Below are positions 2,384-60,085 of a stretch of DNA of 64,000 nt, piece after piece. Source of the DNA: Pseudovirgaria hyperparasitica. Lineage: Eukaryota. Within the stretch, counting starts at the first letter, position 1. Every line of letters begins with the position of its first letter. The translations under genes were made by a program, and so were the position numbers. Under the pieces are notes generated by a model. That model made no database searches and had not been told where the DNA came from. It was given only the letters and a program-made list of their open reading frames with translations. The DNA lies in NCBI GenBank assembly GCA_010093815.1, contig ML996586.1. One strand, given 5' to 3'.

Positions 2384-2402
2384 GCGCCTAAAAACCTACC
2401 TA

Positions 2403-4513: not shown

Positions 4514-4722
4514 TTAGATATATTACTAAGAACTTATAATACTCTAGTTTAGTTATAGTCTAAGACTATATATATTATATAATATAGTCTATTTATAAGA
4601 CTCTACTCTATAATACTATACTCTATAAGACTCTACTCTATAATACTAATACCTTTAGAATCCTAGGAAAGTAGTTTTAAATTTAAGACTACTTATAGTC
4701 TACTAGTTATAGACTACCCTAG

Positions 4723-4758
4723 TTATTATTATTATAATTATTATTATTATTATTATTA

Positions 4759-4854
<96 letters not shown>
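4723..4854. repeat. (TTA)n microsatellite abutting an assembly gap
   Basis: Directly visible trinucleotide run. Confidence 0.97.
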
Positions 4855-5694
4855 NNNNNNNNNNNNNNNNNNNNNNNNNNNNNNNNNNNNNNNNNNNNNN
4901 NNNNNNNNNNNNNNNNNNNNNNNNNNNNNNNNNNNNNNNNNNNNNNNNNNNNNNNNNNNNNNNNNNNNNNNNNNNNNNNNNNNNNNNNNNNNNNNNNNNN
5001 NNNNNNNNNNNNNNNNNNNNNNNNNNNNNNNNNNNNNNNNNNNNNNNNNNNNNNNNNNNNNNNNNNNNNNNNNNNNNNNNNNNNNNNNNNNNNNNNNNNN
5101 NNNNNNNNNNNNNNNNNNNNNNNNNNNNNNNNNNNNNNNNNNNNNNNNNNNNNNNNNNNNNNNNNNNNNNNNNNNNNNNNNNNNNNNNNNNNNNNNNNNN
5201 NNNNNNNNNNNNNNNNNNNNNNNNNNNNNNNNNNNNNNNNNNNNNNNNNNNNNNNNNNNNNNNNNNNNNNNNNNNNNNNNNNNNNNNNNNNNNNNNNNNN
5301 NNNNNNNNNNNNNNNNNNNNNNNNNNNNNNNNNNNNNNNNNNNNNNNNNNNNNNNNNNNNNNNNNNNNNNNNNNNNNNNNNNNNNNNNNNNNNNNNNNNN
5401 NNNNNNNNNNNNNNNNNNNNNNNNNNNNNNNNNNNNNNNNNNNNNNNNNNNNNNNNNNNNNNNNNNNNNNNNNNNNNNNNNNNNNNNNNNNNNNNNNNNN
5501 NNNNNNNNNNNNNNNNNNNNNNNNNNNNNNNNNNNNNNNNNNNNNNNNNNNNNNNNNNNNNNNNNNNNNNNNNNNNNNNNNNNNNNNNNNNNNNNNNNNN
5601 NNNNNNNNNNNNNNNNNNNNNNNNNNNNNNNNNNNNNNNNNNNNNNNNNNNNNNNNNNNNNNNNNNNNNNNNNNNNNNNNNNNNNNNNNNNNNN
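4855..5694. other. Assembly gap (840 N)
   Basis: Run of N. Confidence 1.
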
Positions 5695-8600: not shown

Positions 8601-10273
8601 AGAGGCGCGACTATCCTCGCGCGGTAGCGGCTTTAACTATACCTTTTAGTCGTCCTATCGTCTTCGGGATAGTCTACTATCCCGCCTAACTACCTTCTAG
8701 AGGGGAGGTTAGGGGTATTATAGAGGAAGGGCCCGTAGTAGATATTATATTCTATAACTATCTCGCGCCTCTCGCTTTTATCGTGCGAATGTATTCTATA
8801 ACCTATTTACGTTTTATATATGTTAACGACTATAATAGATATTTCCCGTCGTAGTTTAAATACTATACTATATCCCTGTTTCTTAGTCCGTCTCCTCGCG
8901 GTTTATAAGGGCACTCCTAGATAGCGTGGTCCCTACGGTACTATCCGTACTTAGTCTTCTATAAGTACCTTTATATAGTGTGTCCATACCCTTAATAGTT
9001 AAAGTACTATATTATTACCTATATCCTATTCTATGGCTCGGCTATAAGGAGCTCTCCTTCTACTAGGAATCCCTTCTATATAATATATTATACGAGGGCG
9101 GGGTCTCGGAGCTCTATAATTATAGTAGAGTGTTTTTTCGCCGTCGTCTTAATCGCCTATGGGTTCTTCTACCACGCTTTTATAATCTTAATCCCTAGGT
9201 ATTTTCGCGTGTTAGATTATTCTATACGCGTAATATTCTCCGCTCTAATAGCCTATCCCTATACGGGTACTACGTATACTATAATTAGGTATATAGCTAC
9301 CCTAATAGACGCGCTAGAGAAGATACTATCTATTACGTTCGGATCTCGCGAGATGTTTTACTACGTAGTATTCATTATAGTAGTAAGTACTACCCTACCT
9401 AGCGTAACTTTAGTAGCTACGACGCTCGACTATATTCCTTTCTATTTATTAATCTTATTTATAATTTCCTTTAGGGATATCTATTAGACCTACGCTAGTA
9501 TATCCTTATCCTAGATTATAATACGTATACTATATACTCTATCTATAGTCCTAGTAGTCCTTAGTACGGTAGCTCCGGGTGTTACTATAATCTAAGCCCA
9601 CGTGTTAGGGCGCTTACCTTAGGATAGCTCTTCCTAGATTCTCCGTAGGCTAGCTTCTATTTAGTTAAGCCTACTACTAGGTTCCTCTCGTGGCGACTTC
9701 CTTTCTTCCTCCGTAATTTCTCTTAGATTCTAGATAAGGTCCCGGAATATATAAAGAAGGGTCTTCTTTCCCTTCTCGGCGTCTCTCTCTATACGTATTA
9801 CCTAGTATTTAATTTTATCTAGGAGGGTCTCCCCTCTCGGGGTCCCCTTAGTCTAGGTTATCTATAGCGCTTTACACCCTTAGTTAGTTCCTATATTTTA
9901 GATAGGTGTCTAGCTATCTATATTAATATCGCTATATAGCCGTTTCTACTATACTAGTAGGGGTATATCCGGCGTATACCGGGGTATTACAATACCTAAG
10001 GCCGCCATAGTTATTAGTTAAGGGTAGCCCTTAACTAATAAAAGGGGGTCGGCATATTAGCGTTTATTAGATATAGTCTATACTCGTGTTATTGAAGAGT
10101 CTTCGAGTGTATATATATAGTATCTCTATATATCGGTATCGTCGTGTATTATACGCTATACGTACGCACGTATGTCGGAGGTTATTATACTCGGTATACT
10201 CTATCGTTTAATATATGTAAATCGCTGTTTTACCCTAAATTGACTAGTTTAGTCCGTTGGGGTGTGAGAAGTT
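5695..10273 (-). mobile_element. Tad1-clade-like LINE (ORF1 with CCHC knuckles, ORF2 with APE and RT), RIP-degraded; 3' end lost in the gap
   Basis: De-RIPped minus-strand motifs: CFNCQGYGH (~8980-9010), LLGDFNLHH (~8155-8180), SDH (~7930), GIPQGS and GYADD (~6570-6680). Colinear with 45180-49793, with the same 5' end GAGAAGTT. Confidence 0.92.
10011..10041. repeat. Shared palindrome, 14-bp arms, just upstream of the putative LINE ORF1 ATG (10008)
   Basis: TTATTAGTTAAGGG-tag-CCCTTAACTAATAA. Confidence 0.95.
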
Positions 10274-37438: not shown

Positions 37439-39523
37439 ATTAGAGAAAGACTAGAGATAGTACTATTAAGTTTTAACTACCTATATAAATTAGAGGAGAA
37501 AGCTAATAAACACTACCGCATCCTTAAGGAACGCGGATCTCTAGGTAAATCTAATAAACCTAGAACCGGTTAGAAGCGAGGTCGATTAAATACGTTCGAT
37601 TAAGAGTAACCTTAATACGATTAGCGCTAGAAGAGCGTAAATTAAAGTAAATATACGCTAAGAGGATACTAATCTAGTCACGGTAGTAACTCTTAGCGTA
37701 GAAAAGGATAAGGCATAGGCTTAAATGCCACGCCTATCGTAAAATAGTAGAACTATAGCGCACTAACGTACTATAAGTATAGTAAGAAGGGATATATCTC
37801 CCCGAACTATAAGAATCTAAAAAAAGAATAGACTATTACGCGAGACCTAACCGCGTTTTTAGCTAAATTATATATACTTAGGAGGAGCTATAGAGGCTTT
37901 CTACGAGTAAGGACCTAATTCTACTAAAAGTATCATTACCTATAGTAAATAGTACTAAAACTATAAAGCCCTCGTAGATACTAGCGTAGAAGATAACTAT
38001 ATCTTACTAATCCTCGTAAAAGAGTATAGATTATCGTATAACCTTAGTAAAGTTAGCTGAACTATCGTAGTTAATAGCTATAAGATTAGAACTCTAGGTA
38101 AAACTATAATAAACTACGAAGTTCATAATTTAGAGATAATAAAATAGTATATAACTAATAAGTTCGTCGTTACTAATATCGGATAATAGAATATAATTCT
38201 AGGAATACCTTAGCTAAAACGCCTAAACCTAATCCTTAACTTTTAGAAGAAGATATTAACGTTCCGTCGGCATCGTGGTAGATTATACTAGTAAATTATA
38301 ACTATTAGTAAGGAAGCATGGAACCTCGCTATACGGACCCGATCGTTACTAATTTACCTTATATCGCTATTAACCATCGACGAAGACGACGATAGTAACC
38401 CTAATTAGAGTAGAGATATACTATCTAATACGTATTCGTAGTATGCGGATATATTTTCGGTAGGAGACGTATCGCTTCTCCCTAATCATAGACTATATAA
38501 GCTAAAGATTAAGCTCGAAGAGGGAGTAGACATCTCTTATAGTCTACTCTATCTACTTTTAAGGCTTAAACTCGAAGTTCTTTATAAATATATTAAAGAG
38601 TTCCTTAGAAGGGGTTAGATACATCGAAGCACGTTATTAGCCGGCGCGCCTATTCTCTTCGTAAAGAAGAAAGATAGTAGCTTATACCTTTACGTTAACT
38701 ATTAGGTATTAAATATAGTAACTAAGAAGAATCGGCATCTATTACTACTAGTTAGTAAATCTTTAGACTAATTAACGAAGGCATAGTACTTTATAAAGCT
38801 AGACTTACGAGATACTTATTATCGACTCCGAATTCATCACGGAGATAAGTAGAAGACTATATTTTAGACTAGATATAGCTACTTTAAGTATACTATTATA
38901 CCGTTTAGACTAATAAATATACTAGGAGCGTTTTAAGGCTATATTAATACTATACTAGTAGAACTACTTAACGTGATCTATGTCGTTTACCTTAATAATA
39001 TCCTAATTTACTCCGATAGCATAGAAGAGCATATAGAATATATTAAATCCGTGCTAAATCGGCTAAGGTAACATAAGCTTTACGTAAAATTATTCAAATG
39101 TAAGTTCTACCAACGAGAAGTTAGGTTCCTTGGCTTTATTATAACATATAGCGGCCTAAAAATAGAGCTAGAGCGTGTAAAGACTATCATGGAATGGCTA
39201 GAACCTACTACCGTACGTTAAATTAGGACGTTTATAGGGTTTATAAACTATTACCATAAGTTTATTATAGGTTTCTCGCGAATTACGGCGCTACTTAATA
39301 AGCTTACTAAGAACGGCGGTAATATATCTATAGGTAGGCGAGCGTAGCGTAAAGCGGAGTTAATTAAAATATAGTTAACGCCGGAAGCGCGAGATGCATT
39401 CTAATCGTTAAAGAATTACTTTATAACTACGCCGATTCTTAGATATTTTAATCCTAAAAGATATATTTAGGTTAAGATAGACGCATTAGAATTCATAATT
39501 ACTAGAATTATTAGTTAACTATA

Positions 39524-41034
39524 ATAATAATAATAATAATATTGTATAACTAGGTAGAGTAGTACTCTATAGGCCTATGCCTCCTCTAGTCTAAGCCACT
39601 ATATAAGAAGAAACCCCATAGGGAAAAACTTCCTTATGTCTATAACTACATCTCGTGGAACCTCTGTTTCGTCTTAAGTATACAGCCATAGGGTACGCCT
39701 ATTAGCCTATAGCCTATGTTACCATTGTTTTACCCTTAGGCAGCACGTGTAGGTACGGAGGTTATTAGTCAAGGGCTGCCCTCGACTAATAATCGGGGTT
39801 TGCCTAGGGTTCTTCTAGTATATGTCGGGCCTCTAGTTCGAAGTCGGATAACTCCTATAGGTTCGACGTGCCCTATACCATTAGACTCTACTCCTGTTTT
39901 CGCCTTATCTTATCCCCTTTAGACTTATACCTCCGGCTCTACTAGAAGAGGGGCACGACGCCTTATCTAGCTAGGAAACTACGAGGTTTACTCCTTAAAC
40001 TCATATTACTAGCGTGCGTGCCTAGCGACACGTTCTATCTCTTTATAAATCGATACGCGCATCCGTTCTCTCGGGCTATATAGTAGTCTCCCCGGCTAGG
40101 ACGTGATCCCGCCTACTTCTAGGTATACTAAAGGTTAGAGCCTATTAAAGGGGTGAGGTCCTTAGAGCTAGTAGTTACTACTATATACCACGCCCCGCCT
40201 TTAAGCATGGCTACTATCTAGTTTCACGTTATCTATGAGGATCTCTCCATGATAGGCCGACCGTGTCTTATAGGCGAGCATCCTTTAAATCCTATACATA
40301 TATACTCGCGTGACGCGCCTAGGCAACTTAAGTATCCTCTATCTACTAACCCGACTTATTTCTACTACTTTTTAATGGGTCCCTATAGCCGCCTCTTGCC
40401 TATGTCCGTGTACTATTATCTATGTATACTAGCGCCCTACCTCCTACGGTAGACTATAACATCTCTCGTACACGGGAGCCGCTCTATCTATCCTAGACCT
40501 AAGCGGTATCCCGTATCGAGTGAAAGGTCTTAATAGAGTCGCGCTACTAGTGGTCGCGCTAGGCGTCTTAATAAACGTAGTTTAATACTATAGGAGAGTT
40601 AGCCTTAATAAGTTCATCCGCGGTAGTTTATAGTTACCCTCAACGTGATTTCTCGCTAATCCTTATGTACCTAGAGCCATTTAAGCCTCGAGGTGTCCTA
40701 TCGCGCTACTAGGACTTCCGCTTTCTCTACCCACATGGTAAGGTAGATTCAGGCCTACTTTCAATATAGTAGTAGCGCGTTAGGTGGTTTTCTTATCCCG
40801 GTATTCTCGTGGACTCCTCTTAACGCGTTAATTAAGAATAGGATAGAAGTATATACTATTCTAGCTGGTTTATTACGGTGTGGTCCCTATAGAGTAACGC
40901 GTCGCGAAAACTCTATAACCACCTATCTAGCGACGACGAGGTCGCCATTAACGCCGCTCCGAATCTCTTACTACCTCCGAAGAGGCATTGCCTAGCTACG
41001 ACGACGTGGACGCGGTTCGTGAGACTTCGTAGCC
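39524..41034 (-). mobile_element. Non-autonomous chimeric retroposon: ~1-kb non-coding head plus LINE 3' end and tail, inserted in the RNase H of Gypsy A
   Basis: 13-bp TSD TTAGTTAACTATA (39511-39523 and 41035-41047). 39524-39830 matches the LINE 3' end 44516-44785; 39982-41034 is homologous to 56786-57791. Confidence 0.9.
39762..39792. repeat. Shared palindrome in LINE-derived 3' UTR, least RIPped full copy
   Basis: TTATTAGTCAAGGG-ctg-CCCTCGACTAATAA. Confidence 0.92.
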
Positions 41035-43416
41035 TTAGTTAACTATATAAAGATACGAAAGATAAGGTATAATAGTACCCGGTTACCTTCTTTTCCCATA
41101 AAATAGCGGATATAGAGACGCGTTATAATACGCATGACTAGGAACTACTTATAATTATTAAGAGTTTTAAATATTAGCGATATTATCTAGAGGGTTCTAT
41201 ATATTAGATCGAATTATTATCGGACCATGTAAATCTACGTTACTTTATATTAACTAAGATACTTAATTACCGATAAGTATATTAGGCTAAGTAGATATTA
41301 ATATCTAACTTTAAAATCTTATATAAAGCCGAAAGAGAGAATAAGGTAGATCCCCTATTAAGGCGTAAAGATTATAAGAAATCGTTATAGATTAAGGTAG
41401 ATAGTTAGTATACTTTAGACTATGCTATGCTTAAGATATTATAAGACTAATTATCTAGTAGAGTACCGGAAGCTAGAACACTTTCGGTAACTCTCCGCGG
41501 GAAATAGAGCGGGTATTAAGTAATTAAAACTAACGTCTAAGAATTAGACTAAATTCTTAAAGACTTAATTAAATCTATCTAAAGTTCTAATGCATTAGTA
41601 AAGAATATTATAGATATATAGGAATGTGCCGTAGACTAGCTATGGTTATTAAGGTGGGAACGCCGATTAGACGCGATCTACTTCTAGAACTATCTCTACG
41701 TGCCGGAAGGTGGCCTATAAATTACTATCTTAAGAGAATAGTATAATTACGCGTTAGTAGAATACTTCGGCGTTACGAGAATAACTAAATTAATCTAAAG
41801 AATATATAACTAGCTAGGTCTTTATAAATATATAAAAGAATACGTAAAGACATGTAACGTCTATTAGTATACTAAAGTATATAGGCACTTACCATATAGC
41901 GAATTAAGGCTATTACCTATACCGAAAGAGGTATAGAAGGAACTATTAATAGATTTCATTACCGATCTACTACTAAGTAAGTATTTTAGTACTATTTATA
42001 ATAGCTTACTTATAGTTCTAGATAGATTTACGAAGATATCGTACTATATTCCTATAAGGAAGATAATCTAAGTACCGGATCTTATAGATGTGCTCCTCTG
42101 TAAGGTAATTAGACTCTATAGTATACCGAACGGTATAGTTTCGGATAGAGGTCCGTAGATAACGTCTAAATTCTAGAAAGACTTCTACTATACGCTAGGA
42201 ATCAAGCGGAAACTTAGTACTATATTCTATCTATAAATAGATAGGTAGACGGAACGGTAGAATTAGATAATTAAGGCGTATCTACGTACGTATTATAACT
42301 ACGAGTAGAATAACTAGGTAAGGCTAGTATATATTACGGAATTCGCGTATAATAATAGTCGATATACGTTAACCTACGTAAGTCTATTCGAAGCGAACTT
42401 CGGTCGTAACTATAATATATAGTTTATCGGAACTTAGTTTAAAGCTATATAGCTAAACGTTAAAGCGACGGAAATTACTATAGAACTATTCTAAACGTAG
42501 AGAAGCGTTAGAAAGCTACTATAGAATACTATAGATTATAGTAAATCTTACCACGATAGGCGAAGAAAGCCTATAATCTTTAGCGTTAGAGATAAAGTTC
42601 TACTAAATAGTAGGAATATTCGGAATATTAGGCCTAAGAAGAAGCTTAACTATATAATGATAGGTCCCTTTAAGGTTACTTATGTAATTAATAACTAAGC
42701 GTACGAGTTAAAGCTTCCTCTAACTCTAAAGATATATAATATATTCTATATTACGCTTCTTAAACCATTTCATGCCTTATTACTACCGGATTATTCCGAA
42801 TAGTAGATATATAAAGTAGTTATATAAGAAGGTATAGACATCTACGAAGTTAACTAAATACTTAGCTAATAACGTACCGAAGATAGTACATGGTTATATA
42901 AAATTCGCTAGAAAGGCTATAGTCCGGACGAAGATATATAGGAACCTATAATAAATATTAGTAAAGTAGCGATATTAGTATATAAGTAATAATTAATAAA
43001 GGAAGTCGATAATCTATATAGAGATGCTCCGAAGCACGGCGAATCTATATATTTTAGTATAGTTTAGCGTTAAGGGCGACCCCCGAAAAGAAGAAAGGTA
43101 AAAGTTAATAAGAATTAATAAGAAATTAATAAAGACTTCTTAGGAAATTCCTTTAAAATTCCGAATCTAGGAACTTAGAAAATTAAAGTTAGGAAAAATA
43201 CCTCTAAGTAGGCATGTAATATAAATCGGTATAGATTAGTAGAAATTACTAAAGAAAAGAAGATATTATTAAAGAAAGATAAAATTATAGACTAAAGAAA
43301 AGAGATCCGTAAAGATCTATATAAATCTACCTAGAAAAAGCTAAAAACGCTAGATAAAGAAATAGAGTAGTACCGATTAGTATAAATCTAAACTAATTAA
43401 GGGCGAGCGGGGGGAG

Positions 43417-44370
43417 CCGGACTAATTACTATAATAAGCGGATCTAATTCCTTCCGCTATACACGGGTTAGTAAAGTATAGAGCTATATAATATAAGTTT
43501 CTAGCCTTTCGTAGCGACGCTACGAAACCTATATAGCGTACTTTATATTTATAAACTCTTCTAAAGAAACTTACGGAACTATAGGAGCCGGGGCCTAAGT
43601 AATATAGACGCGCTAAGAATTATAAATCTTAGTAAGAAGATTTAAAGATTAGCTTAGATTTATATACCTTAGTAATAGGAGTATTAGAATCGGTATTATC
43701 CTTACTAAACTTATAACTTTTTAGTAGACGGGATATAGAGATCTTAGCTTTTTTACTAGAACCTATCCTAGGAATCTCTAGGTCCCTAGAGTATAGGAAG
43801 AAGTCCGAAGTGGTAATAATTTTTATATTATTTTAAAAAATAATATATATTAGTAGAGATTAGCAAAGATTTATAGAAAATAATATTACCTAGTAATCGT
43901 AGTAACTATAGCGGTAGTAGTATCTTCTAACTTAGTACGATTAGTATTATCCCGGTACTTCTAGGTATAATCTATACCGATCTTACGAAGCTCGTAGAAG
44001 GCTAACTCTAAAGTATTATAATTAGCACGATTATTCTCCTTATCTACCTTAGATATACGAGGCCTAATATCGATCTATATAGAAATAAGTAAATTAGTAG
44101 AAAGCGGTATAGTATCTATATAAATACCTATAAATAGTTACGCTTCTTGGTTAGATATATACCGTATATTATAGAACTAGTACTACCGTATATACGCGCC
44201 TTAGGGAACTAATAATCTATATACTTTATACTTAGAAGGTCGTTATCCGGGCTAGTAGGGGGTATAGTTATAGCCTTCGCTATATTAGTAATATAAGCTA
44301 GGCATGGATTATTCGAAGGCGTAGCCTTCCTTACTAATTACTTTATAGCGTTAAGGTTTCGGGATACTAT
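43417..44370 (-). pseudogene. Antisense intron-containing accessory gene in the 3' region of Gypsy A (putative Cys-rich/Zn-binding)
   Basis: P-C-L-A-Y (TGC at 44302-44304), then Y-G-I-Y-L-T-K-K-R-N-Y-L-stop directly before intron 44075-44127 (GT...ACTAAT...TAG). Second copy at ~2960-3790. Ends approximate. Confidence 0.6.
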
Positions 44371-44515
44371 AATATAATTATTATAGATCTAAGTAGATTT
44401 ATAACGAAGTGTTATAGCTATTTAAATCTTTATATAAAACCTTATAGATCTAAGTAGAATTATAGCGAATTATTATTATTATAGACTATTTATATAGAAA
44501 ATTAGTAAATCTATA

Positions 44516-47500
44516 ATAATAATAATAATATTATATAACTAGGTAGAGTAGTACTCTATAGGCCTATGCCTCCTCTAGTCTAAGCTACTATATAAGAAGA
44601 AACCCAAGAGAGGAAAACTTCCTTATGTCGATAATTACATCTCGTTAAACCTTTGTTTCTTCTTAAGTATATAGCTATAGGGTACACCTATTAGCCTACG
44701 GCCTATATTACCGTTATTTTACCCTTAGGTAGCACGTGTAGGTACGGAGGTTATTAGTTAAGGGGTTCTTCCGGCATATGCCGGGTTTCCTCTAATGTAT
44801 ACTAGGTTTCTTCCGGTATATATTTCCGGGTCTACTAGAATTAGAGGAGTAGTAGGTATATAATCATCTACCGGGCGACGTCCTTAGGGTACTTATTAAG
44901 CCATTATATAATATCGGAGGTTCTTATTATATAGATAAGCTTCTACCTTTACGTGTGAAGATCGGGGTATATTATAAGATAGTGGCGTATTATACCTCTC
45001 CGGCCGCACGTCTTATACTATAGAGATACGTCGGGGACGCCTCTCTTATAGAGGTAGTATAGAAGTTCTATAGCGCCCGTTCGGGCTTAGAGGAGTATAG
45101 ATGCCTAGGCCTTTATAAGCCGTTTATATATCTATTTACTCGGCTCCTTCTATGGTCCTTAGATCTACTCTAGATACCTATTCTACTAGGAGGCCTACTA
45201 GGCCCGGAGTATCTCTTTCTACTTATCTTAGATCTATAACTATATACTTCGTCCGAGCTCTTAAAGGCTCTATTAGTCTAGAAGGGTATCTAGGTTATCC
45301 TTAATCTCTTATACTACTTAGTTCGAGTCTATTTCTATCGGGCACTTATACCATAGTCGAGTCCGGCCTATATATAAGAGTACTTAGTAGTATATACTAA
45401 CTCGCGCGTGTAGCGCGGCGAAGGTATATTCTATATTTTCTACACGTTTCTATGCTTATTATTTAGTAAAGTATACTACTCTCTATATCTAGTAGAAGTT
45501 ATATATACTTATAACGTCTATCTCGCGTCGTAGTAGCACCGTGTTAGTAGCTTTATATACGCCTAATATAAGACGGAGTATACGGTTCTATATAGATTCG
45601 AGCTTTATTCGCCTAGTCTATATAAGGGCCGTGTGCTAGTACTCGTGTCCGTACATAAAGGCGGGTCGTACTATAGATATATATAGCTAGCGTGCCTTAT
45701 CCTAGGCGGTTCCCTACGTAGAGGCCGTAATCCGGTATATAGCGGCTTCTATCTAGAGGGCCCTAGAAACGGCGTATGCTACCTATGGTCCCTATTTAAG
45801 CTTATTATCGATTATAACGCCGAGTGTGTATATACTTTATATTGGCGGTTCGTTAAAGGCGTCTATTCTAGGGCGTCACTCGCCTTCCCTAGTAGCCCAT
45901 TTCCTACGGCGGTTAATAAAGTACATGAGTTAGTACTTTTCGGGGGCGAACTTTACTCTATGGCGCTTTACCTATTAGACGTATCTCCCGTAGTCTTATT
46001 CGAGTCGTCTATATGTTTAGCTAGTATTATTATCGATAGCTAGAAGGTATATATCGTCTACGTATCCTACTATCTCTATATATTATATTCTCTAGAGGAG
46101 GTCTATAGTAAAGAAGAGGAAGAGAATCGGGGAGATAGTACTTCCTTATAGAATGCCGTAAGCCGTCTTCTCGTACTTACTTCGATATCTAGGGATGTAT
46201 ATCTAGGTAACTCTTTCGGCAAGGAAGGACTATATAAACCGCGTAATCCACGCGGGTATACGCCTCTTCCGTAAGTTATAGATAAGTCTCGTGTAGTTTA
46301 CTTTATTAAATACGCCGGCCATGTCGAGGGAGAGTAGCGTTACTACACGTCCCTACTTCTATACGGTCTAGACGACTTTGAGGATATATTAGATAGCGGT
46401 AATTAGAGAGCTTCTAGCCTTCGCCTTCTGGTTTACTAGGAGGAGGTTATATTCCTATACTACGGCGCTTATCTTCTTTACGATTATAGTCTCTAGTATC
46501 TTCCCGAGATAGAAGAGGAGGGCGATTAGCCTCTATCCTTTTAGGGAGCTAGGGTTCTTCCCTAGTTTCGGGAGTATAATAGTATAGGCGGCCCGGAAGC
46601 TTTGGGGGTGGTATCCGTTCTTAATATATACTTAAAATATATAACTAATGAGCGGTAGGGTAGCTGGTATAGTGCGTTTAAGGTACCTATTTAGTATTCT
46701 ATCCGGTCCGGGTACCTTATTATTCGGGAGTACTTTAACGGCGTTAAGTATATCCTCCTTAGTAACCTCTTAGGGGATATTAATTACGTCTAGATATTTA
46801 GTATTATTAATATCTAATAGGTCTACTAGCTCCGGGAGGGGGAATATAACTTTACGTAAGATCTCCGTCTTCTCCGGGCTTATAGAGTATATTCTCTCTT
46901 AGTATATTAGGGGAGGTATTAGTGGCGGCGGTATCGGCGCGTCTACACCCTTAGCCTACTTTACCATGCACTATAGCCCTACGGCTTACCGTGTGTGTTT
47001 ATCGGTAATTATATACTATTATTTTCGTCGTTTATTACGGAGGGCCCTATCACGATATCGCACTACTTCCTTCTACTCTTCCCACGCCTCGGTCGTCCGG
47101 ATATAGTATACACGTGTATATAGTCTACGGGTATCTCTTCTATACTCTCGTATTTAAGGTATACCCCTTGCTTCTAGGGGTCTATACGTTTAGTATAGCA
47201 CGTGTTTATCTCTTATAGCTTAGTATACTTAAAGGAGGACTTACACGGCCTTGTCTATGGCTAGGCCGTTGGATACGTTAACTATAGAGGGGTCTAGAAT
47301 CGCCGATTCTAGGTCCTCTAGATATTTATCCTAATTAGTATCCTTCTATAGCTATTTCCCACGTTATTTATTAAGAGTGGAGACGTCTATTACGGTTTCT
47401 ATATATTCATGGTCGGAGTCCGTCTATATCCGGCTCGGGCGGTAGTACTATACTCTATAGCTAATATGCTTGGTGGCAAGGGTGAGGTCGAGCGTAGACC

Positions 47501-49793
47501 CGTCCTCGTCCTATTTATATTTCCTCTAGGTAATCTACCCCATAGGTATAAGGAGGTATAGAAAGTTATAGCACCGTGTATATAGTTCCCTTACTCTAAG
47601 TTCTTCTCTCGCGACGGCTAGGCCTCCCTACTACCTATGGTAGAGATTAAAGTCGCCTAGGAGGATATATTATCCCGGCGTTGTGGTGCCCTCGAGTATA
47701 TCGTCTAGTATAAGCGATTACTATTAATTATAGATGTTATAGATATGGAGAGGCCCTATACTTATCTAGAGATATAGTATTATCTAGAGGTTATTACGTT
47801 CGGTATAAGACCATTCTAAGAGCGGGATCGACTTATATATATAAAACATGACTCTCCTATCCGGGCCCGTAGGGTGGATAGTATAGTATCCTAGGTGTAT
47901 TATTAGCTTATTAGTTTAGTAGTGTTTATATAGTTCCTAGATAGCTATTATTACGGCTCCTGTCTCTTCTAGGAGCGTCGCTTGGTTTTCTCATTTATGT
48001 TATACGTTCGCCTATATAATAATAAGTATATCTTATACCCTTATTAGGTACTAGGGAAAGTTCGAGTCTATATATTAGTGGCGCTAAGGCGTGATTATCC
48101 TCGCGCGGTAGCGGCTTTAAGTATACCCCGGGGTTAGCCTATCTTTCTCTATATAGTATACTATTACGCGTTATCCTCTCCCCTTCGGGGGGTGGTTACT
48201 AGATTCATAAGTAAAGTTAGGGATAGCGGCGAGGGTAGCGAGGGCCTTATAGCTTGGTATATCTACCTCGCCTCTCTTATCTTTATCGCGTTAATATATT
48301 CTACGACCTACTTACGTTTCATATACGTTACCGACTAGGATAGGTATTTCCCGTCGTAGTTAGAGTACTTAGCGGTGTCCCTATCTCGCGTCTCGTTACT
48401 CTACGTCTTATAAGGGTATTCCTTAGTATTATAGCCCTATTTATACTACCTATAGGCGGTCTTCTAAGAGCACCTCTGCCTAGTATACCTATATCCTTAA
48501 TAGTTAAAGCATTACGTTATTACCTATGCCCTATCCTATAGTTCCGCCGTGAGTAGCTCTCCTTTAGCTAGAAAGCCCTCCTATATTATTCTATAGGCGA
48601 GAGCGGGGTCCCTAAGCTCTACTATTATAGTAGAGTACTTTTTTAATTTTATCTTGATCCCTTAGACGTTCTTCTACCACGCCTTCGCGATCTTAATCCC
48701 GGGGTACTTCGGTTTGTTAGATCGCTCTATTCGCTCGATATTATCTTCTCTAATAACGTGTCCTTAGATAGGGACGGTATATACCTATATTAGGTACATG
48801 GTTACGCGGATAGACGCGCTAGAGAAGATGTTATTAATCACGTTCGGGTCGCGCGAGATAGTCTACTAGGCCGTGTTAGTAGTAGTAGTTAGTACTATAC
48901 CTCCTAGGGTGAGTTTGGCGGCCACTATATTTAACTATATCCCTTTCTATTTATTAATCTTATTTATAATATCCTTTAGAGACGCTTACTAGACTTATAC
49001 GAGTACTTCTTTATTCTAGATAGCGACTTATATACTATATACCCCGTCCGTAGGTACCCTTAGTATTTTAGCTAATATAGCTATTCCGCTTATAGGTGCG
49101 GCGACCTATACCTACGTGCTAGGGCGTTTTCCCTAGGTAAGGCCCTCCTAGATCCTCTATAGGCTGGCCTCTATACGATCTAGTCTAGATTCTAGGTCTA
49201 GTTCCGGCGCCTATTTTACTCCTATAGTAAGCTCCCTAATATTCCGGACGAGGTTCCGGAAGATACTAAGGAGGGCCGTTTCTCCCTTCTTAACTTCCCC
49301 TTCTATACGTGCTACCTAGTAGTTAATCTTATCCGGGAGGGTCTCCCCGGGTAGAGTCCCCTCTATCTCTATTATCTATAGCGTTATACGCCCTTGGTTA
49401 TTCGTCGTTTATTAGACGGGGGTTTAATCATCCTAGGATATACCGCTATATGGCCGTTTCTACCGTACTAGTGTTAGGGGTATACCTAGTAGAAGCCGAG
49501 GTACGTCGGTACCTAAGGCCGCTATAATTATTAGTAAAGGGCTACCCGTAACTAATAAAAGGGGGTTAGCGTATTAGCGTTTATTAGAGATAGTCTATAC
49601 TCGTATCATCGAAGAGCCTTCGAGCGTATATATATAGCGTCTCTATACGTCGGTATCGTTATATACTATATACTATACGTACGTACGTGTATTGGAGGTT
49701 GTTATACTCGGTATACTCTATCGTTTGATGTATGTAGATCGCTATATTACCCCGAATTGACTAGTTTGGTCCGTTAGGGTATGAGAAGTTTTT
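44516..49793 (-). mobile_element. Full-length Tad1-clade-like LINE inserted in the 3' region of Gypsy A
   Basis: 14-bp TSD TTAGTAAATCTATA (44502-44515 and 49794-49807); empty site visible at ~3924-3937. Short (TAT)n tail on the element strand; ORF1 knuckles, APE and RT motifs as in 5695-10273. Confidence 0.95.
49528..49558. repeat. Shared palindrome (2 mismatches) upstream of LINE ORF1
   Basis: TTATTAGTAAAGGG-cta-CCCGTAACTAATAA. Confidence 0.88.
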
Positions 49794-50156
49794 TTAGTAA
49801 ATCTATACTAATCTAAGTAAATCGATATAAAGTTATATCTATAGAGAACTAGTAATATACCTAGTAATCTAAGAAATTCTATAAAAAGTTATAGAGTTTT
49901 TTAAAGAAAGGAAATATTCTAAGGAAAGATTTATATATAGGATCTATCTAGGCTTACGTAATTAAGTCACGTAGACACTAGTCCTATTTAGGTAATACTC
50001 CTTGGATTAATAGAACTAAGGCGTTTAAACGGTATCTATAGATATTAGTTTGGTTCGGTATAAACGGTCTATAGAATCTAAATAATAGGTACGGAACGGG
50101 GTAGAAGTATAAAGATTAATATCACTAAGGGTAGCTCTCTAAAGGAAGGGGATTAT

Positions 50157-50382
50157 TATTAGGAATTAACCGAAGGCTAGACTAGATCTATATATATCTA
50201 AGCCGATATAGTAAGAGATGGCGTGATAGGCAGTAAGTGGTCACGTGCTAGTTAGATTAGTATACCTCTAATATATACTCCTTGATTACTACCGAGGGGG
50301 CTTGGTAGTAATTCGTTCTATATAGGAATACACCCCATTGTTCTATCTAGCTATACTACTATCTATTAACCCTATTCTTACA
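50157..50382 (+). repeat. 3' LTR of Gypsy A
   Basis: Follows PPT AAAGGAAGGGGA, ends CA, followed by TSD CTATA. Confidence 0.95.
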
Positions 50383-51835
50383 CTATAAATAGAGATAGAT
50401 AAAGTCTATTTTAAAATATAACCTTAAAGAGAGACGTATATAGAGTGAAAAGTATTAGAATTAGGGTCTTAAGCTATTTAAATATAGGGTCTATATAGAT
50501 AAGGCTTATATAGACCCTATAGAGTACTAAACTAGGTAGATATTATATAAGTAAAAGATAGCTAAGGAGCCTTAAAATCTTTAGTATAAGCCTAATAGAT
50601 AAGACTAGAAATACTACATCGTAAGCTACGTCTCCTAGTTCTATAAAGGAGACCTTATCTTCTATAATAATAAGTAAGTTAAAGTAAGAAGGCCTTAAAA
50701 ATTAGGTAAACCACAATGCCGTAAGAATAAGACTTAGGTTTAATATAAGGCTAGAGTCCTATCCTAGTAGAATTAATATAAGTATAAGGTTATCTATAAG
50801 CTAAAGGGTAATAGAATAATAATAGAGTACTATATTTTAAAGATACTATCTATTTATATAAAGTAGGTAAAGGCCCTTAAGGCCTAGTACTCTTATACTT
50901 TTTAGCTAGTTAAAGATAGAGATCCTTTATATAGGAAGCCTAGAAAAGGTAGTAAGATAGGGAAAACTAATCTAGCTATAGAGGCTAGACTTAAAGAGAG
51001 AATATAAGTTAATTACTACTATATATAGAGTTCTAATCTAAATCCTATAGAAGTCTATTAGGCTATATTAAAGTAGAGATTAAGGAAAAGGATATAGTAG
51101 AATAATAAGAAGCTAAAGTAGTATATTTTAGATATCTAGAATAGTATTATACTCGAGGAAATTTATACCCGGATCTCTAACTTACTAAGATAATATTAGT
51201 ATCTAGTAAAATATAGTAGAGGGTGCATTTATAGCTATAGCTAGTAATCTATTAATAAATTAACGTTTTTTAAGTATATTCTAGTGATGCGGCCTGTGCG
51301 CGGAGACACATCGGTGATCGGTGAGTTTTGGTACCCCCTGTTGCAAGTGTGGCGACATATGAACATGATTGGTAGATTATACATCCACTACCCAGACTAC
51401 AATAGCCTTGTCCCAAGGCAGCCACTTGCCCACTCAAGTCTGTGGAAGGGAAGGCGATGGCGCTTAGCCAAGGCTTCCAGGTTAAACCGAGTCCGCCCCG
51501 GCGGATGCATGGCACAGATGAGAGGCTATCGGACTTAAGATACTGATGGTTAGATGAAACTCCACGCTCTTAATTAACGACTTGACTAGAGTCGAGGTCT
51601 GGGGAAAGGAAGGGCATGGACTGAAATCTGTGGGTATCTAGAAAGGTCTACGCTTCTATCGACGTGCGAGAAGCATCGAATATTTAGAGCCAAATTCTTT
51701 GAAGAGAATGTTGAATGTGGGTTTCCTGCGACCTTCTCACTGCGCCGAACCGCGGAATGGCTCCCCTTCAACACACCATGTAGCGTCCGTTAAGATTGAA
51801 CGGGACGCCGCCGGATGAGCGTTGTTATTTCATCT

Positions 51836-54785: not shown

Positions 54786-55991
54786 ATGCCGACCGCACCA
54801 CACGCCTTCCAAGAAGCAGAAATACATGCAGATCAAGGTAATGTAACCCATAATTTATTTGCGCAAGTAATCTGTATGAATTATCCAATACTAACAAATA
54901 TCAGCCGGTCTGATGTACTTTCTGGAAAGAAGCGATACTTGGAAGACTATCAAACCGTACAACTTCCACTATTTCCCTAAAGAGAATTTTCCCGTTCATA
55001 ACATTGAGCGCGCCCTGCACATTGTCAATATTAAGAGCATGAGACCTCTTATGTCATCACTGACTATGAAGAAAGAAGGATTCCAGGTTCATAGCATAGC
55101 TACAATTATGGGGTATGAAGATTTCAGAAAAAAGGACAAAGTCGAGGATATCTACATGAGAGAGCTTGAGAGCTATTTCAGAACCACACTTCCAGGTGCT
55201 AAGTACGTGCGAAGTTTAGATTTCCAGGTATTTATCACTATCCCTCCCGCGACCATCGTTCTGAGGCGTCTTCAGTTGCGACAGCGAGATGTCAATTTCC
55301 CCATAGCAGGAGGTGTACCATGGCAAAAGCCTCAGCCAAGCCTCCTCACGCACGTTGGTGAGCCATTGAATTACTTAGCTATGAGACGTCTTCCGATTAA
55401 TCTACTCGTTACCAGACGTCACACTCGATAGTGCGAAGAAAATCATCAGAGAAATTTACGAGGACCAGGTTGCTTCAGAGATTCTTGAATCGCGATTTCA
55501 AGTCATAACGTTCGTTATATGTACCGTATGAAGTCAGTGGACACTAGCTGAGCAGGTAACATAGAGTTTGGCGTCCTCTCCGAGTGCCAGTCCGGGACTG
55601 GCCACTGGCCATCTGTGATGCGTCAACGGTAGACCAGAACGATTTTGTCGATACGGATGTGATCTACCCGAGCTACATCGCGGAGAACCGGATGCTTCAC
55701 TACAATAGTGAACAGCAATGGTATTGGCTACCAGACCAGAAAAAGGACGAAGTATTAGTCTTCAAAGCAATTGACACCGATGATGCGATAAGTTCACGTA
55801 TGGTCATGCTACCCACTAGGAACATGAACACTGACATCGTAGCTTGTCCTCACGGAGCTTTCCAGCTCACTGGTAGAGCTGACAACTCACAACCCCGAGA
55901 AAGTATCGATATCAGGCTTCTCGTCATGTACGCAGACATAGAGTACCCAGACGGGAAGTTCTCAACAAACGCTGTAACAGCTACGTACTAG
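54786..55991 (+). CDS. AsaB/CmcJ/NvfI-family protein (probable Fe/2OG oxygenase), multi-exon
   Basis: KPY, GFQV, HV|D split by an intron, VWRPL..PV.DWPLAICDA, CPHGAF and PRESIDIR motifs. Confidence 0.8.
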
Positions 55992-56234
55992 CCGCAGGCC
56001 TCACGAGTATTAGGACCCATTGCATTACCACTTTCATATCGTAGCAATATTGTTCATTGTTTGTATTTACAAATGAAGTTCATCCTCCTAGAACGGTTGA
56101 CAACGAACGAACACATTTACCCCTCCCCTCCTAAGGCAAGAATATTTGCGACCTCAGATCGATATTAGCTCCTAACCTCGAAATAGACCGCCGCCTCTAC
56201 TTACGATCATCAGGGTCCTTCATGTTCCTCGTAC

Positions 56235-56420
56235 TCATTCTTGGTGCTTGTATTGGTCGGCCTTCGTGTCGCGATCAACCGGTTTGCTGACAGATGCACC
56301 CGAGCCTCCACCTGGAGAGTTGGCACGAAGGTTGCGTTCGCTGAGATCAGGATTGTCAGCTTCCTCAAGGGAAGACAAAGCCTTCCAGGGCTGAATCTTA
56401 GGAGTATTTTCAGACGGCAT
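56235..56420 (-). CDS. Possible 61-aa hydrophilic small protein
   Basis: ATG in a CAAAATG context in unRIPped intergenic DNA; no recognisable domain. Confidence 0.3.
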   Translation of the reverse strand: MPSENTPKIQPWKALSSLEEADNPDLSERNLRANSPGGGSGASVSKPVDRDTKADQYKHQE

Positions 56421-56785
56421 TTTGTAGTATGTGTTGAGTAAACAATTTTCTTGTTGACGAGGAATAGCTTTGTCGCAGTATGATCTGTCTTGGAAGGCGG
56501 CAGGTGAGAAGGCTGGGACTCGTGACTATTTATCAAACATGCCTGATGACTTCAACATACAAGGCAAATTCGCCAAGCCTGCATGATGAGGGGTAGTTAA
56601 CCCGGTAGAGCATACAATTCATCGGTCTGTCCCAGTTGCATGAGACTCTTGGCACTCCGATGTTCAGTCCTGCCGCGTATATTCTGAATTATTATGAGAG
56701 CGACATTGGTACTATTGTAAGCATTTAATCGCATATTGCCAATGTTTATCGCTGTACCGTCCTAATAATTATATACAAGTGAGTA

Positions 56786-59011
56786 GGCTGCAACGTCTCA
56801 CGAAACGCATCCACGTCGAGGTTCGGAGTGGCGTTGATGCCGACCTTATCGTCGCTGGGTGGCTAGGTGCAAGCTTTGCGACGTGTCACTCTAGTAGACC
56901 ACCCACGATAAACCAGCTAGGACCTTATGCGCATACACCCTGCTCTCGATTGACGCGCTAAGAGGAGTTTACGAGAATATCGAAAGCAGGCCGGATCCTA
57001 CCTAGCCGTCTAGGTAGATGAAGCGGAAGTCCTAGTAGCGCGACAGGGCACCTTAAGGCTGAATGGCTCTAAGAACGTAAGGATCAGCGAGAAATCACAT
57101 CGAGGGCAACTATAACTACTACTAACGAACTTGTTAAGGCTAATTCTCCTATAGTATTACTACGTTTATTAAGCCATCTAGCGCGCCTACTAGTAGCACG
57201 TCTCTAGTAAGACCTTTCGCTCGAAACGTTACACTAGGGAAGAGGCAGAGCCATATCCATGGCTATCACGTACGGGAGATATTATAGTCTACCGTGGGAG
57301 GTAGGACGGTGGAGCACACAGTCAATGGAACAGAACCAGGTAAGGGGAGTTTACAGGCCATCATTAAGAGCAGCGGACACAAGTCGGGTTAGTAGGCAAG
57401 CGGAGCCTAAGTCGCCTAGGCATGGGATCCAAATGCTTCTCTGTCTACAAGACACGGTCGGCCTATCGTAGAGAGATCCTCATAGACAACACGAAACTAA
57501 AGGATCAGAGACAACAGGCTGAGCCTCCTGAAAAATAAAGGGATCAGGCAGGTCTATCTATATAGTCTAGAGGCGGGGCGTGGTACGTGGTAGTGACTGC
57601 TGGCTCCGAGGACCTCACCCCTTCATCAGGCTGTGACCCTTGGTGTACCTAGAAGCAGGTAGGATCAAGTCTCGGCCGGAGAGACTACCACGTGGCCTGA
57701 AAGGACGCATGCGCGTGTCGATTCATGAACAGATAGAACCCATCGCATTAGGTGGGCACACTGGTGACATGAGTTTAAGGAGCAAATCTCGCGTTTACTG
57801 GGCTGAGAGAGGTTTGGCTCCGCCTAACTCAGAGGAAGACCCCCTAGGTCTGAAATCCAGTTCAGGGCTTGGATGGACATACAAGCAGCTCGAACCTGAG
57901 CGCCACTCGTGGTGAAACGGAGGCAAGGCAAGATTGGAAGCAAAGTGAAAACCAAAGCCGCCTGCCGCAATGGCTAAAAGGGAAATGGGATAAGAAAGCA
58001 GATATATATAAAGCACTGACCAACTTCCTCCACATGAAGAAGGTGCCTGAAATACTCCCGTTGTGCGAAGACTGCGGCGAGCTGGGCACTGTGCGCCATT
58101 ACCTTACTTTCTGCCAGAAACTAGAAGGCCCGCGGCGACAATTAGCACACGATACCCCCACGACTAAGGGGGTGTTTGAGACCTCAGGTCGATTTTTGAC
58201 CTCCAGAATAACCTTATTTTTAAGCGTTAAGACGGCGTCCGGCCACACTAAATCCATAGTTTCTCTTAGGTTTACCGAAGTTTTGGCGAAATCGAATAGA
58301 TTCGAGTTTTCTTACGGGCGAAAAATACTTGCTGCTCGAAAAAGGTCGATTTTGACCTCCGACTATACTCTAAAAAGTTAGATTAAGCCACCCCGTCGAC
58401 CGGTTCTCTTAGTGCCGCTTAGTGTATATACCCTGGTCATCAGCTCGGGTTTTAAGCTGGAGGTGGGATACGATTTTAAACACTCGGCGGAAAAATGGGA
58501 ATTAGAGGTCAAAAAGGTCAAAAAACGACCTTCACCTGAGGTTTCAAACACCCCCTAATTCGTGTGTATGGCTAAACTCCTTTCCTAGGGCGGTGACCAT
58601 CTAGATGCTCCGTAACCTCCCTCTTCAGCAATACGAGTAGGCACGCCAACATATGCCCGGAATAATCACTGGGCCGATCGTGGATAGTAGCTCAAGGCCG
58701 GCCCTTGAATTACCCAGGACGCGTCCTCTAGACCCTACTGCTCTACCCTAGCACGCTCAAGCTGATCACGTCTCCTTGAGACATAAGCGCCTACTCGCGC
58801 TGCCTACGGGCAACTTTGGTCGATAGTGTCGCGAAAAGTGTCGGAAAATAGTATGGTTGCATGTTCTGCAATACTTAAGCAGTGCGATTTTTTGCCTGTG
58901 AGCCTTAGGGGCTTATTAGGCCTTCTCTTATATAATAGCTTAGACTAGACGAGGTGATATCGCCTGTAGGGGTAACCCTGCCTAGTAATCCATTTCATTA
59001 TTACTATTACA
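56786..59011 (+). mobile_element. Chimeric retroposon: same ~1-kb head plus 5'-truncated LINE (ORF2 C-terminal Zn finger, 3' UTR, tail), only lightly RIPped
   Basis: The 5' end GGCTGCAACGTCTCACGAA matches the 5' end of 39524-41034. CEDCGELGTVRHYLTFC at ~58063-58113. 3' terminus TAGCTTAGACTAGA...GCCTAGT resembles the LINE end; ATTATTACTATTAC tail. No TSD found. Confidence 0.82.
58168..58555. mobile_element. PIF/Harbinger (Tourist-like) MITE, 388 bp
   Basis: 22-bp TIR GGGGGTGTTTGA(G/A)ACCTCAGGT with 1 mismatch; TAA on both sides (58165-58167 and 58556-58558). Confidence 0.9.
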
Positions 59012-60085
59012 GAAGCCATCAGAACAGTAGTATTTCGATTAAAGCGCGGCACAAATCGCCTCGCGTTCAGCTTGCGTCTCTTTTCGAACCAATTGAGCTT
59101 CAAAGATATCTTTTCCGCGACCCTTGAGCTTTGGATCTACCACGACTGCTGCAGCGACTTAAGCGGCGATAGAAGCAGCTATTCCGGGCGCAGAAGGCGC
59201 TGGCGCCAGTAAATTTCGTACTACAGTGCTTGGTGACGGCGTAGGTGACTTGGGATTTGATTCCCGTGCCGTAGTAGCCTTTCTAGCAGTCGGATGAACC
59301 TAACAGTCGACAAAGTCTTCGAATTGGATCTACACTGGCTCGTCTGGATTCTTCTTCGCAAAGCTATGAACCTCATCAACAATCGCGAGAATCCGAGACC
59401 ACGATACAAGCGACCAGTCAAGCACAGTATCACCTCTGATTCCGCGCTTCCCTCCAACACCTAGCCAAGCCGAGAAGGTACACTTTTGGAATGACCAGAT
59501 GTAGCCAACGATGTTTTCACCAATACGCTTATGAACTTCGTCTTCATAGTCATCAGGTTCAAAACGTCCACGCATGGAGGTAGGCAGGCTATCTTCATCG
59601 ATCTTCTTGTTGGCAACGTGGAGTTTCCATTTCGGAAAGACAGCCCAGTTCTGCGCCGGTGTCTCCTCCGCATCGTTATCCTCTTCAGCTTCAACTTCAG
59701 CTTCTATAACTTCAGCTTCTATAACTTCAGCTTCTATAACTTCAGCTTCTATAACTTCAGCTTCTATAACTTCAGCTGCGACTTCAGTTTCAGACTCTAC
59801 GATACTCGGGAGGTTTGCGCGCGCGGCGGAGGGGAAGAGGGTACATCGGACGGGTTACTCGCGATATTCACTCGGGAGGGCGGAATTATGAACTGGCCAG
59901 GCCTCCGACGCGATTTCTTCTTCACGGCGACTCCAAGAGCTTTATTGGCGTCGTCTGCCTGCTTTCTAGCCGTGGGGCGACGCTGACGAGGCCCTGTGGA
60001 AGGAGGAGATGGCTCCGTGGTATGGTCTGCGCCGAAAGCCACATTTTTTCGGCTTTTTTGGCTTCTGTGCGGCTTTTGGAGGCAT
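59012..60085 (-). pseudogene. Degenerate gene of unknown function (MPPKAAQKPKK start, EVIEA repeats), ending at the retroposon boundary
   Basis: ORF-track pieces 59797-60042 and 59330-59575 link only via two frameshifts, followed by in-frame TAG/TAA stops. Confidence 0.55.
59693..59777. repeat. 15-bp tandem repeat AACTTCAGCTTCTAT, about 5.7 units
   Basis: Directly visible; encodes (IEAEV)n on the minus strand. Confidence 0.97.

Follow-up and report, generated by a model that had tools for sequence, protein, structure and literature searches.

The stretch analysed here, 64,000 nt of the fungus Pseudovirgaria hyperparasitica (contig ML996586.1, assembly GCA_010093815.1; hereafter the window), contains two copies of a non-coding sequence, the head, each followed by a piece of a different long interspersed nuclear element (LINE). 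We found that these heads, copies A and B, belong to a family that occurs in several genomes in front of LINE pieces of different kinds, and that the changes between its members support a common predicted fold. We take the head to be the 5' module of a MINE/WEIRD-like composite, a non-autonomous and LINE-mobilised retroelement, and to be itself a conserved structured RNA, with a probability of roughly 0.7. MINE is the element of Magnaporthe grisea/oryzae reportedly described by Fudal et al. in 2005.

Heads of one family in front of different LINE pieces

When copy A was compared with the window by BLASTN, copy B was returned over 974 of 1053 columns (E = 1e-108). The two copies lie where a preliminary description of the window had placed them, begin at an identical base and carry the start motif that it quoted. 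The starts that it gave for both copies stand, whereas its 3' ends fall short, since conservation runs on to 57849 in A and 39929 in B, with a covarying helix beyond the proposed ends. No third head-like copy was found in the window, either by BLASTN or with a profile hidden Markov model (HMM) built from 15 heads (A, B and 13 from metagenome contigs). Head length is about 1.05 kb in A and B and 1.05–1.2 kb in the family. In a MAFFT alignment, A and B are 74% identical over 988 aligned columns (733 identical, 178 transitions, 77 transversions) and are separated by 16 indels, four of which are at least 21 nt long; both blocks that had been quoted as near-identical are identical. Of the 178 transitions, about 117 are C>T/G>A in B and biased to CpA/TpG, and the index (CpA+TpG)/(ApC+GpT) of copy B is 0.38, indicating that much of the A/B difference is due to repeat-induced point mutation (RIP). 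Stop-to-stop frames reach no more than 77 aa in A and 82 aa in B, each frame having 11–40 stops, so that the copies share no long open reading frame (ORF), as had been noted, and no ORF exceeded 113 aa in the eight heads checked. Searches of Pfam with the three sense frames of both elements (stops read as X) and of Rfam with positions 56000–59500 and six metagenome loci (33,968 bases, E ≤ 1) gave no match. The head is non-coding.

The tails of the two copies differ, as had been claimed. A LINE ORF2 is represented in the tail of A by its C-terminal Cys-His motif, and the tblastx match of this tail to the corresponding region of the LINE in the window is 36.7% over 30 aa (E = 5e-4). Over its last 88 nt, identity to the 3' ends at 39525–39608 and 44510–44597 is 77%, and this low value indicates that the tail comes from a different LINE family of the same kind. 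Since a miniature inverted-repeat transposable element (MITE) of 388 bp sits inside it, the LINE part of the tail amounts to about 0.8 kb, as had been estimated. In B, the tail matches the 3' end of the window's full-length LINE over about 0.27 kb (91% identity), and the first ~135 nt of the tail have no assignment.

Relatives of the head were retrieved by scanning metagenome contigs with the 19-mer AAGACACGGTCGGCCTATC (57449–57467 of head A, identical in A and B). Because this 19-mer was the search word, its invariance among the retrieved loci is by construction and is not informative. The scan returned 15 loci, 12 of which hold heads, 13 copies in all; a scan with the 23-mer AAGCGGAAGTCCTAGTAGCGCGA gave no match. 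The remaining loci (L003, L005 and L014) match over only 22–30 nt and were treated as chance word matches. Looking up part of the 19-mer in the literature yielded a single, unrelated paper, on the swine virus PRRSV. The metagenome heads form two subfamilies, M2 (L002, L012, L010, L008b, L009, L011 and L013) and M1 (L004, L006, L007, L008a, L001 and L015). Conserved islands run along the whole head, and its first ~35 nt are common to M2, A and B; L002 and L012 open with an identical start motif, and a single start is common to the four M1 copies for which a 5' flank is present. Since contig L008 carries both M1 and M2, the two subfamilies belong to the same genome.

A single end base is common to five M1 heads, which continue into five different sequences, one of them another head. 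The LINE 3' pieces behind metagenome heads measure from about 450 to 1930 nt, and their 3' ends are unlike those of both LINEs of the window; at least three different LINE 3' ends are paired with heads, so that the head is not bound to one LINE family. L002 and L012 share the same head, junction and ~250 nt of tail in different flanks, which indicates that at least one composite has spread as a unit. Among the eight elements with a 5' flank that were searched for target-site duplications (TSDs), three gave repeats of 13–15 nt (B 13, L007 14, L015 15). The anatomy thus comprises a fixed 5' end of the head, a fixed 3' end in M1, LINE 3' tails of varied length and family, TSDs of 13–15 bp and (ATT)n ends, and it bears out the earlier proposal of repeated joining to LINE 3' ends.

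These junctions speak to the explanation that the head is the normal 5' untranslated region (UTR), or another 5' region, of an autonomous LINE, and that the elements are internally deleted LINEs, which we regard as very improbable. LINE 5' UTRs can be long and structured and can contain internal promoters, and a short TCTCAC-like word occurs both at the head start (56795–56801, ..CGTCTCACGAA..) and at the start of the full-length LINE (49780 and 10270, ..CTTCTCACACC..); this word may be a chance likeness or an initiator-like element. However, the two copies of the window LINE share another 5' end, to which BLASTN found no similarity in the head (one LINE family checked), the junctions fall at very different LINE positions, even inside the reverse transcriptase (RT) domain, and neither the single end base of the M1 heads before five partners nor the pairing with at least three LINE 3' ends is expected of a deleted LINE.

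A predicted fold kept by compensatory changes

The whole head (alignment A3), its 3' domain (A4, 14 sequences; L013 was left out because its contig ends early) and its central domain (A5, the 11 sequences containing it) were aligned. For the 3' domain, RNAalifold predicted 82 pairs in 17 helices, with 95.8% of 1145 cells paired. Both sides had changed in 37 pairs and 146 cells, compared with 25.9 and 57.1 in within-pair shuffles (0 of 500 reached the observed values) and with 6–14 double-changed pairs in slid-partner controls. Since such controls favour a structure derived from its own alignment, the whole procedure was repeated on column-shuffled alignments that keep the pattern of each column across the sequences, 40 for the 3' domain and 60 for the central domain. 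The 37 double-changed pairs of the 3' domain compare with 11.9±4.1 in these shuffles (maximum 21), its consensus energy of -61.7 with -23.6±3.5, and its 15 of 82 pairs in which purine and pyrimidine are swapped with pairing kept compare with 3.0±1.9. In the central domain, 14 of 27 predicted pairs were double-changed against 1.7±2.1 (maximum 7), and 7 of the 27 swap purine and pyrimidine with pairing kept.

Further observations agree with this structure. For six representatives, the 3' domain gave z = -9.05 in the sense orientation (0 of 60) and -6.26 in antisense, and the 5' plus central part as a whole gave z = -5.67. G-U cells outnumber A-C cells by 189:31 in the 3' domain and 45:7 in the central domain, an excess of about 6:1 that fits a sense-strand RNA, though the structure was chosen on that strand. 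Large indels are confined to loops; the 53-nt insertion of A lies within one, where L008b and L011 have inserts of another sequence. Central helix 4 reads CUACC/GGUAG in A and B, CUGGC/GCCAG in M2 and GCUAGC/GCUAGU in M1, with three of its five pairs double-changed. These results support, at the level of a predicted consensus of about 109 pairs, a fold of the central and 3' parts of the head that is conserved across at least four lineages (A, B, M1 and M2). The occurrence of the head family in several genomes with a conserved fold in turn implies that the RNA is under selection. Alignment between subfamilies is poor in the 5'-most ~250 nt, and no structure is claimed there beyond the first ~35 nt (A, B and M2).

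The preliminary description had proposed a large structured RNA, and compensatory changes far above those in column-shuffled controls, purine/pyrimidine swaps included, support that proposal; several of the individual structures that it named fared less well. Of two CTACC..GGTAG hairpins present in both copies, the first (56998–57017) is the covarying helix 4, whereas the second (~57290–57306) is conserved only between A and B and lies outside the consensus. A long-range pairing of ACTATAA with TTATAGT is likewise conserved between A and B but absent from the consensus structure, so that this pairing and the second hairpin are neither supported nor excluded. The UUCG hairpin GCCTCTTCGGAGGT does lie inside the first B-only indel, but it is private to the B lineage and gained no support. 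That description had also named, in advance, a lack of covariation, a coding origin and identity with a LINE 5' region as grounds for dropping the idea; we found covariation, no coding signal, and a head distinct from the 5' end of the window LINE.

Short repeats were seen in the centre of the head. Units like GAACTTGTTAAGG (57128–57145; A3 columns ~490–600) number two in A and B and as many as four in M2, and M1 has a different unit, like GCGACGTTAATC, repeated about four times at the same place. They could be candidate protein-binding sites.

A number of results weigh against a conserved fold. Copy A alone is not unusually stable, with z = -0.35 against dinucleotide shuffles in the sense orientation (6 of 20 at least as stable) and no signal in antisense (z = -1.40). 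Between A and B alone, changed pairs of the minimum free energy (MFE) structure stay paired at 0.43 compared with 0.47 at random, while double compensations are mildly raised (14 vs 8.4 and 15 vs 7.9). The structured RNA is thus not demonstrable from the two copies of the window, and the 13 relatives were needed. When structures of single sequences were judged in other subfamilies, double-compensated pairs were about twice the expected number in 14 of 15 comparisons and in the 5% tail in 9 of 15, but the kept fraction of changed pairs was above the null in just 2 of 15, indicating that a core of helices is conserved and not any whole MFE fold. The covariation statistics ignore kinship, the sequences represent about 4–6 independent lineages, and many compensatory changes are single events common to one subfamily. 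In addition, a 37-nt deletion in copy A removes one strand of a helix kept in B, M1 and M2, where it pairs with the conserved TAGCGCG block.

A further objection is that RIP, which targets CpA and its complement TpG and thereby alters both arms of an inverted repeat in step, might have created pairs that RNAalifold then selects, and so the apparent structure, in a head that is unconstrained spacer DNA. B, L008b and other copies are RIP-mutated, the H8/H9 differences between copies are mainly CG<->TA, and the folding energy of single sequences is unremarkable. In the transition/swap classification, which counts 41 double-changed pairs in the 3' domain where the shuffle comparisons count 37, 26 of 41 and, in the central domain, 7 of 14 are transition-only, and RIP can mimic such changes in inverted repeats. 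The other 22 of these 55 pairs swap purine and pyrimidine, and RIP cannot have produced these. Since the column shuffles gave far fewer swaps and far weaker energies than observed, and since the long-range, nested, multi-branch layout with loop-confined indels is what a folded RNA would show, we find an origin of the structure in RIP scarcely credible.

Table 1 Features of the two elements, of the predicted fold and of related loci (window coordinates unless a contig is named).
Feature	Position	Strand	Remarks
Head copy A	56786–57845	+	non-coding, GC 0.52, no visible RIP mutation; HMM aligns 56787–57849
Head copy B	39930–41034	-	RIP-mutated, three lineage-specific inserts; HMM aligns 41033–39929
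B-only indels of at least 21 nt	41002–40968, 40804–40768, 40316–40296	-	A/B alignment
A-only insertion, 53 nt	57502–57554	+	within loop closed by helices H6/H7
Central helix 4	56998–57017	+	hairpin CTACCTAG-CCGT-CTAGGTAG; covaries between subfamilies
Structured 3' domain of head A	57349–57832	+	17 consensus helices (predicted)
H8/H9	57582–57593 with 57685–57697	+	close multi-branch junction containing H10–H14
H15	57720–57727 with 57768–57775	+	
H17	A, 57803–57811 with 57824–57832; B, 39970–39941	A, +; B, -	covarying helix
Copy A tail, part 1	57846–58167	+	5'-truncated LINE; ORF2 C-terminal Cys-His motif at 58016–58105
MITE in copy A tail	58168–58555	.	388 bp; ~40-bp terminal inverted repeats (GGGGGTGTTTGA...); TAA target duplication
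Copy A tail, part 2	58559–59013	+	LINE 3' UTR, ends in degenerate (ATT)n run
Copy B tail	39524–39929	-	last ~270 nt (39796–39524) = window LINE 3' end at 91% identity; ends in (ATT)n
Element B 5' TSD	41035–41047	-	13 bp, TATAGTTAACTAA
Element B 3' TSD	39511–39523	-	partner of 41035–41047
Full-length LINE	44539–49793	-	RIP-mutated; Pfam RVT_1 2.1e-14, Exo_endo_phos_2 1.9e-7; donor family of B tail
Second LINE copy	5695–10273		same 5' base as first (49790 and 10273)
L004			after M1 head: sequence without identified partner
L006			after M1 head: LINE 3' piece, 1260 nt
L007			after M1 head: LINE 3' piece, 1004 nt; 14-nt TSD; interrupts repeat intact in L015
L008	oriented 2300–4540		full M1 head, M2 head minus first ~260 nt, 65 nt, (ATT)n
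L010			5'-truncated M2 head, then within ~160 nt C-terminal half of RVT_1 (E 1.2e-6); LINE part ~1.9 kb
L015			after M1 head: 450-nt tail; 15-nt TSD

Copy number, transcripts and the surroundings of the elements

Four sequencing runs from two studies contain the stretch, none of them recorded as RNA; two are DNA, and the other two come from one different sample and are of unrecorded kind. In the DNA runs, summed contig depth was 971–8404 over 57006–57675 as compared with 283–323 in the flanks, a depth that is not a copy number, and 87 and 147 contigs in the two runs match the 4-kb stretch, MITE included, at 80% likeness or more. The head is therefore multi-copy in the source fungus. Loose ends of the contigs resemble an unmutated form of copy B, and summed depth over the MITE is several times that of the flanks.

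In the runs of unrecorded kind, contigs skip segments of 48–63 nt bounded by GT..AG or CT..AC, as complementary DNA (cDNA) would. Such cDNA-like contigs equal copy A letter for letter over 56787–57077 and 57139–58020, and they are unbroken across the head start (56780–57076) and the junction of head and tail (57139–58020). Copy A is present in both of the samples. Since they cross that junction, we infer that the copy A composite is transcribed; the contigs show neither the starts, the ends nor the strand of transcripts.

The same contigs bear on the possibility of a self-cleaving ribozyme, formed by the head or by a part of it, that would generate the head's own 5' or 3' end. Ribozymes resembling that of hepatitis delta virus (HDV) are known at the 5' ends of some LINEs, the ends of the head are precise, and the conserved multi-helix fold adjoins the 3' junction. 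On the other side, both ends of the head are crossed without a break by the cDNA-like contigs, no motif of a catalytic core was identified, and the Rfam search of 56000–59500 and six loci returned nothing at E ≤ 1, including for the Rfam 15 self-cleaving ribozyme models (HDV-like, hammerhead, twister and others). The ribozyme that had been suggested earlier thus found no backing in this search, and we consider one quite improbable. A promoter role, suggested beside it, is hypothetical.

Several other signals were observed around element A. Within the head, one cDNA-like contig (run X3) skips the 62 nt of 57077–57138, which read GTAAGG ... TACTAAC ... AG; an unspliced contig is also present, and the intron signals are not kept in B, M1 and M2, so that this splicing is probably incidental. 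Upstream, a very strongly covered transcribed locus at 55843–56780 ends ~70 bp before head A. It contains a 52-nt intron of minus-strand type (56151–56202), its minus strand holds no ORF above 61 aa, and in one run a 63-nt GT..AG joint of plus-strand type (56717–56779) leads from it to the position 6 nt ahead of the head. These signals suggest that read-through or antisense transcripts enter the element from this locus. Downstream (58538–59722), cDNA-like contigs join the right end of the MITE to the LINE 3' UTR over a 48-nt GT..AG gap and continue past the end of the element (59013) to 59722, deeper than over the head; element A may feed or overlap a downstream transcription unit.

The window also contains RIP-like, AT-rich repeat blocks and protein genes (OPT, CorA-like, amidase and NB-ARC/TPR) of a filamentous ascomycete, and its nearest Atlas clusters are from Ascomycota. 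The full-length LINE sits within another repeat of ~1.6 kb (43529–50391), of which an uninterrupted copy lies at 2950–4522, and has a target duplication of ~10–12 nt, GATTTACTAA. The run of N at 4855–5694 is an assembly gap that abuts the second LINE copy and explains the six-frame 'ORFs' and the 12% GC there. On L008, the tripartite chimera stands tail-to-tail with an inverted LINE 3' end.

Similar known systems and a proposed model of mobilisation

The closest parallel is MINE. Gogvadze et al. (2007; PMC2104539) report a full-length, 1.1-kb non-coding WEIRD sequence fused to MGL LINE fragments of 230–5461 nt at 28 different sites and flanked by 10–20-bp TSDs; a few junctions are common to more than one copy, one chimera is tripartite, and chimeras are transcribed. 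WEIRD is described there as having neither relatives in other genomes nor a known structure, and no solo head was seen. A GCC|A/T motif on the LINE side of the junctions also marks MINE-type elements. The elements described here likewise have a full-length head of ~1.1 kb on 5'-truncated LINE 3' parts with many junction sites, and share with MINE the TSDs, junctions common to two copies, a tripartite chimera (here head-head-tail, on L008), an apparent transcription of the composite and the lack of a solo head, here in 64 kb and 15 loci. They differ in belonging to another, RIP-active ascomycete with other LINE families, and in that the head family occurs in several genomes with a conserved fold. 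Three WEIRD/MINE primers given in a second paper (PMC3978060) did not match any of the 15 heads at up to five mismatches, a weak test as it involves primers only, which indicates that the head is not the M. oryzae element itself. A literature search on other fungal cases and on non-autonomous LINE-dependent elements yielded only the Magnaporthe papers as relevant, by which absence from print is not established.

Other systems resemble the element in part. Mammalian U6-L1 and other small nuclear RNA (snRNA)-L1 chimeric retrogenes also carry a full structured-RNA 5' part on a 5'-truncated LINE, formed by template switching and flanked by TSDs; their head, however, derives from a host RNA that is known, measures ~100 nt and has a solo gene, whereas the head here is ~1.1 kb long, has no match among known families and comprises several lineages, diverged and multi-copy. 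Short interspersed nuclear elements (SINEs; CORE, V and Deu superfamilies included) and SVA are, like it, non-coding, mobilised by LINEs in trans via a LINE-like 3' tail and built of modules conserved across species. SINEs are typified by a tRNA, 7SL or 5S head with an internal RNA polymerase III (pol III) promoter and a length of 100–500 bp; the head here has no such pol III-type relative (0 Rfam matches) and is 1.05–1.2 kb long. The element as a whole has about ten times the length of a SINE, and the place at which its LINE part is joined differs between copies. The HDV-like ribozymes of R2, RTE and L1Tc are structured RNAs at the 5' end of non-LTR (long terminal repeat) elements as well, but those elements are autonomous, the ribozymes measure ~70–200 nt, and the head has no match to their Rfam models. 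Telomerase RNA was also considered and set aside, with no telomere-template-like run seen in the heads by eye and the element being multi-copy.

The course of events that the anatomy supports best is the following. A LINE reverse transcriptase would begin target-primed reverse transcription on LINE RNA, copy part of it, switch template to the 3' end of the head RNA and copy on to the 5' end of the head. Some composites, such as that of L002 and L012, may then have spread as units via the LINE tail. The conserved fold would be kept by selection on the RNA for some step of this hitch-hiking, for which binding of the LINE ribonucleoprotein (RNP), offering or defining a 3' end for template switching, stability and transcription are candidates.

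The fold could instead serve the host. On this explanation the head would be a cellular housekeeping non-coding RNA, and its copies dead retro-pseudogenes made by template jumps of LINE reverse transcriptase onto an abundant RNA of the host, like the mammalian U6-L1 chimeras, with no role of the fold in mobility. A fold kept by compensatory changes and a precise 5' end, in M1 also a precise 3' end, are expected of such an RNA too, the mechanism of formation would be identical, and the authors of the MINE paper argue for a host RNA in the case of WEIRD (PMC2104539). A host-RNA origin of the head is possible. Against this explanation stand the deeply diverged lineages, each multi-copy, within one genome (M1 and M2 on L008, A and B in the window), the contig ends that resemble an unmutated B, the pairing of heads with different LINE families together with at least one composite that spread as a unit, and the finding of neither a solo head gene in the 64 kb and the 15 loci nor a matching Rfam family. 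We consider a housekeeping RNA with dead copies unlikely; the presence of diverged multi-copy lineages side by side in one genome leads us to prefer selection for hitch-hiking.

Our reading of the head as the 5' module of a LINE-mobilised element has to be set against several points. Template switching is deduced from the anatomy and was not observed. TSDs are convincing in only three of the eight elements; three others gave just 9-mers, likely by chance, and two gave none, among them copy A, for which no TSD of at least 9 nt was found. Where the head ends on its 3' side is defined in A and B only to within some tens of bases, as alignment of the region beyond helix 17 did not place it, and the kind of the runs read as RNA is unrecorded.

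A bolder proposal goes beyond LINE mobilisation and is, in our judgement, doubtful but conceivable. The head would represent a new class of large ascomycete structured RNA (~1.1 kb, at least 100 conserved pairs) that lives as a parasite of LINEs; its fold would recruit the LINE reverse-transcription complex, present its own 3' end for template switching and perhaps define its own ends, possibly by catalysis, and WEIRD, unexplained since 2005, would belong to this class as a diverged member.

In Magnaporthe, ACE1 was inactivated by MINE (PMC2104539). Elements of this type insert near or in genes, and copy A itself lies ~70 bp from a strongly covered transcribed locus. So far, MINE/WEIRD has stood as an oddity of one species, an RNA of 1.1 kb whose function is unknown, without known relatives and always fused to a LINE. 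The present data add a head family that spans several genomes with different LINE partners and the first comparative evidence that such a head is a folded RNA under selection. With a covariance model of the head, this class could be annotated in fungal genomes, in which such elements probably pass as unknown repeats at present. The nature of WEIRD-like RNA thereby becomes testable, and the predicted helices are direct targets for compensatory mutagenesis.

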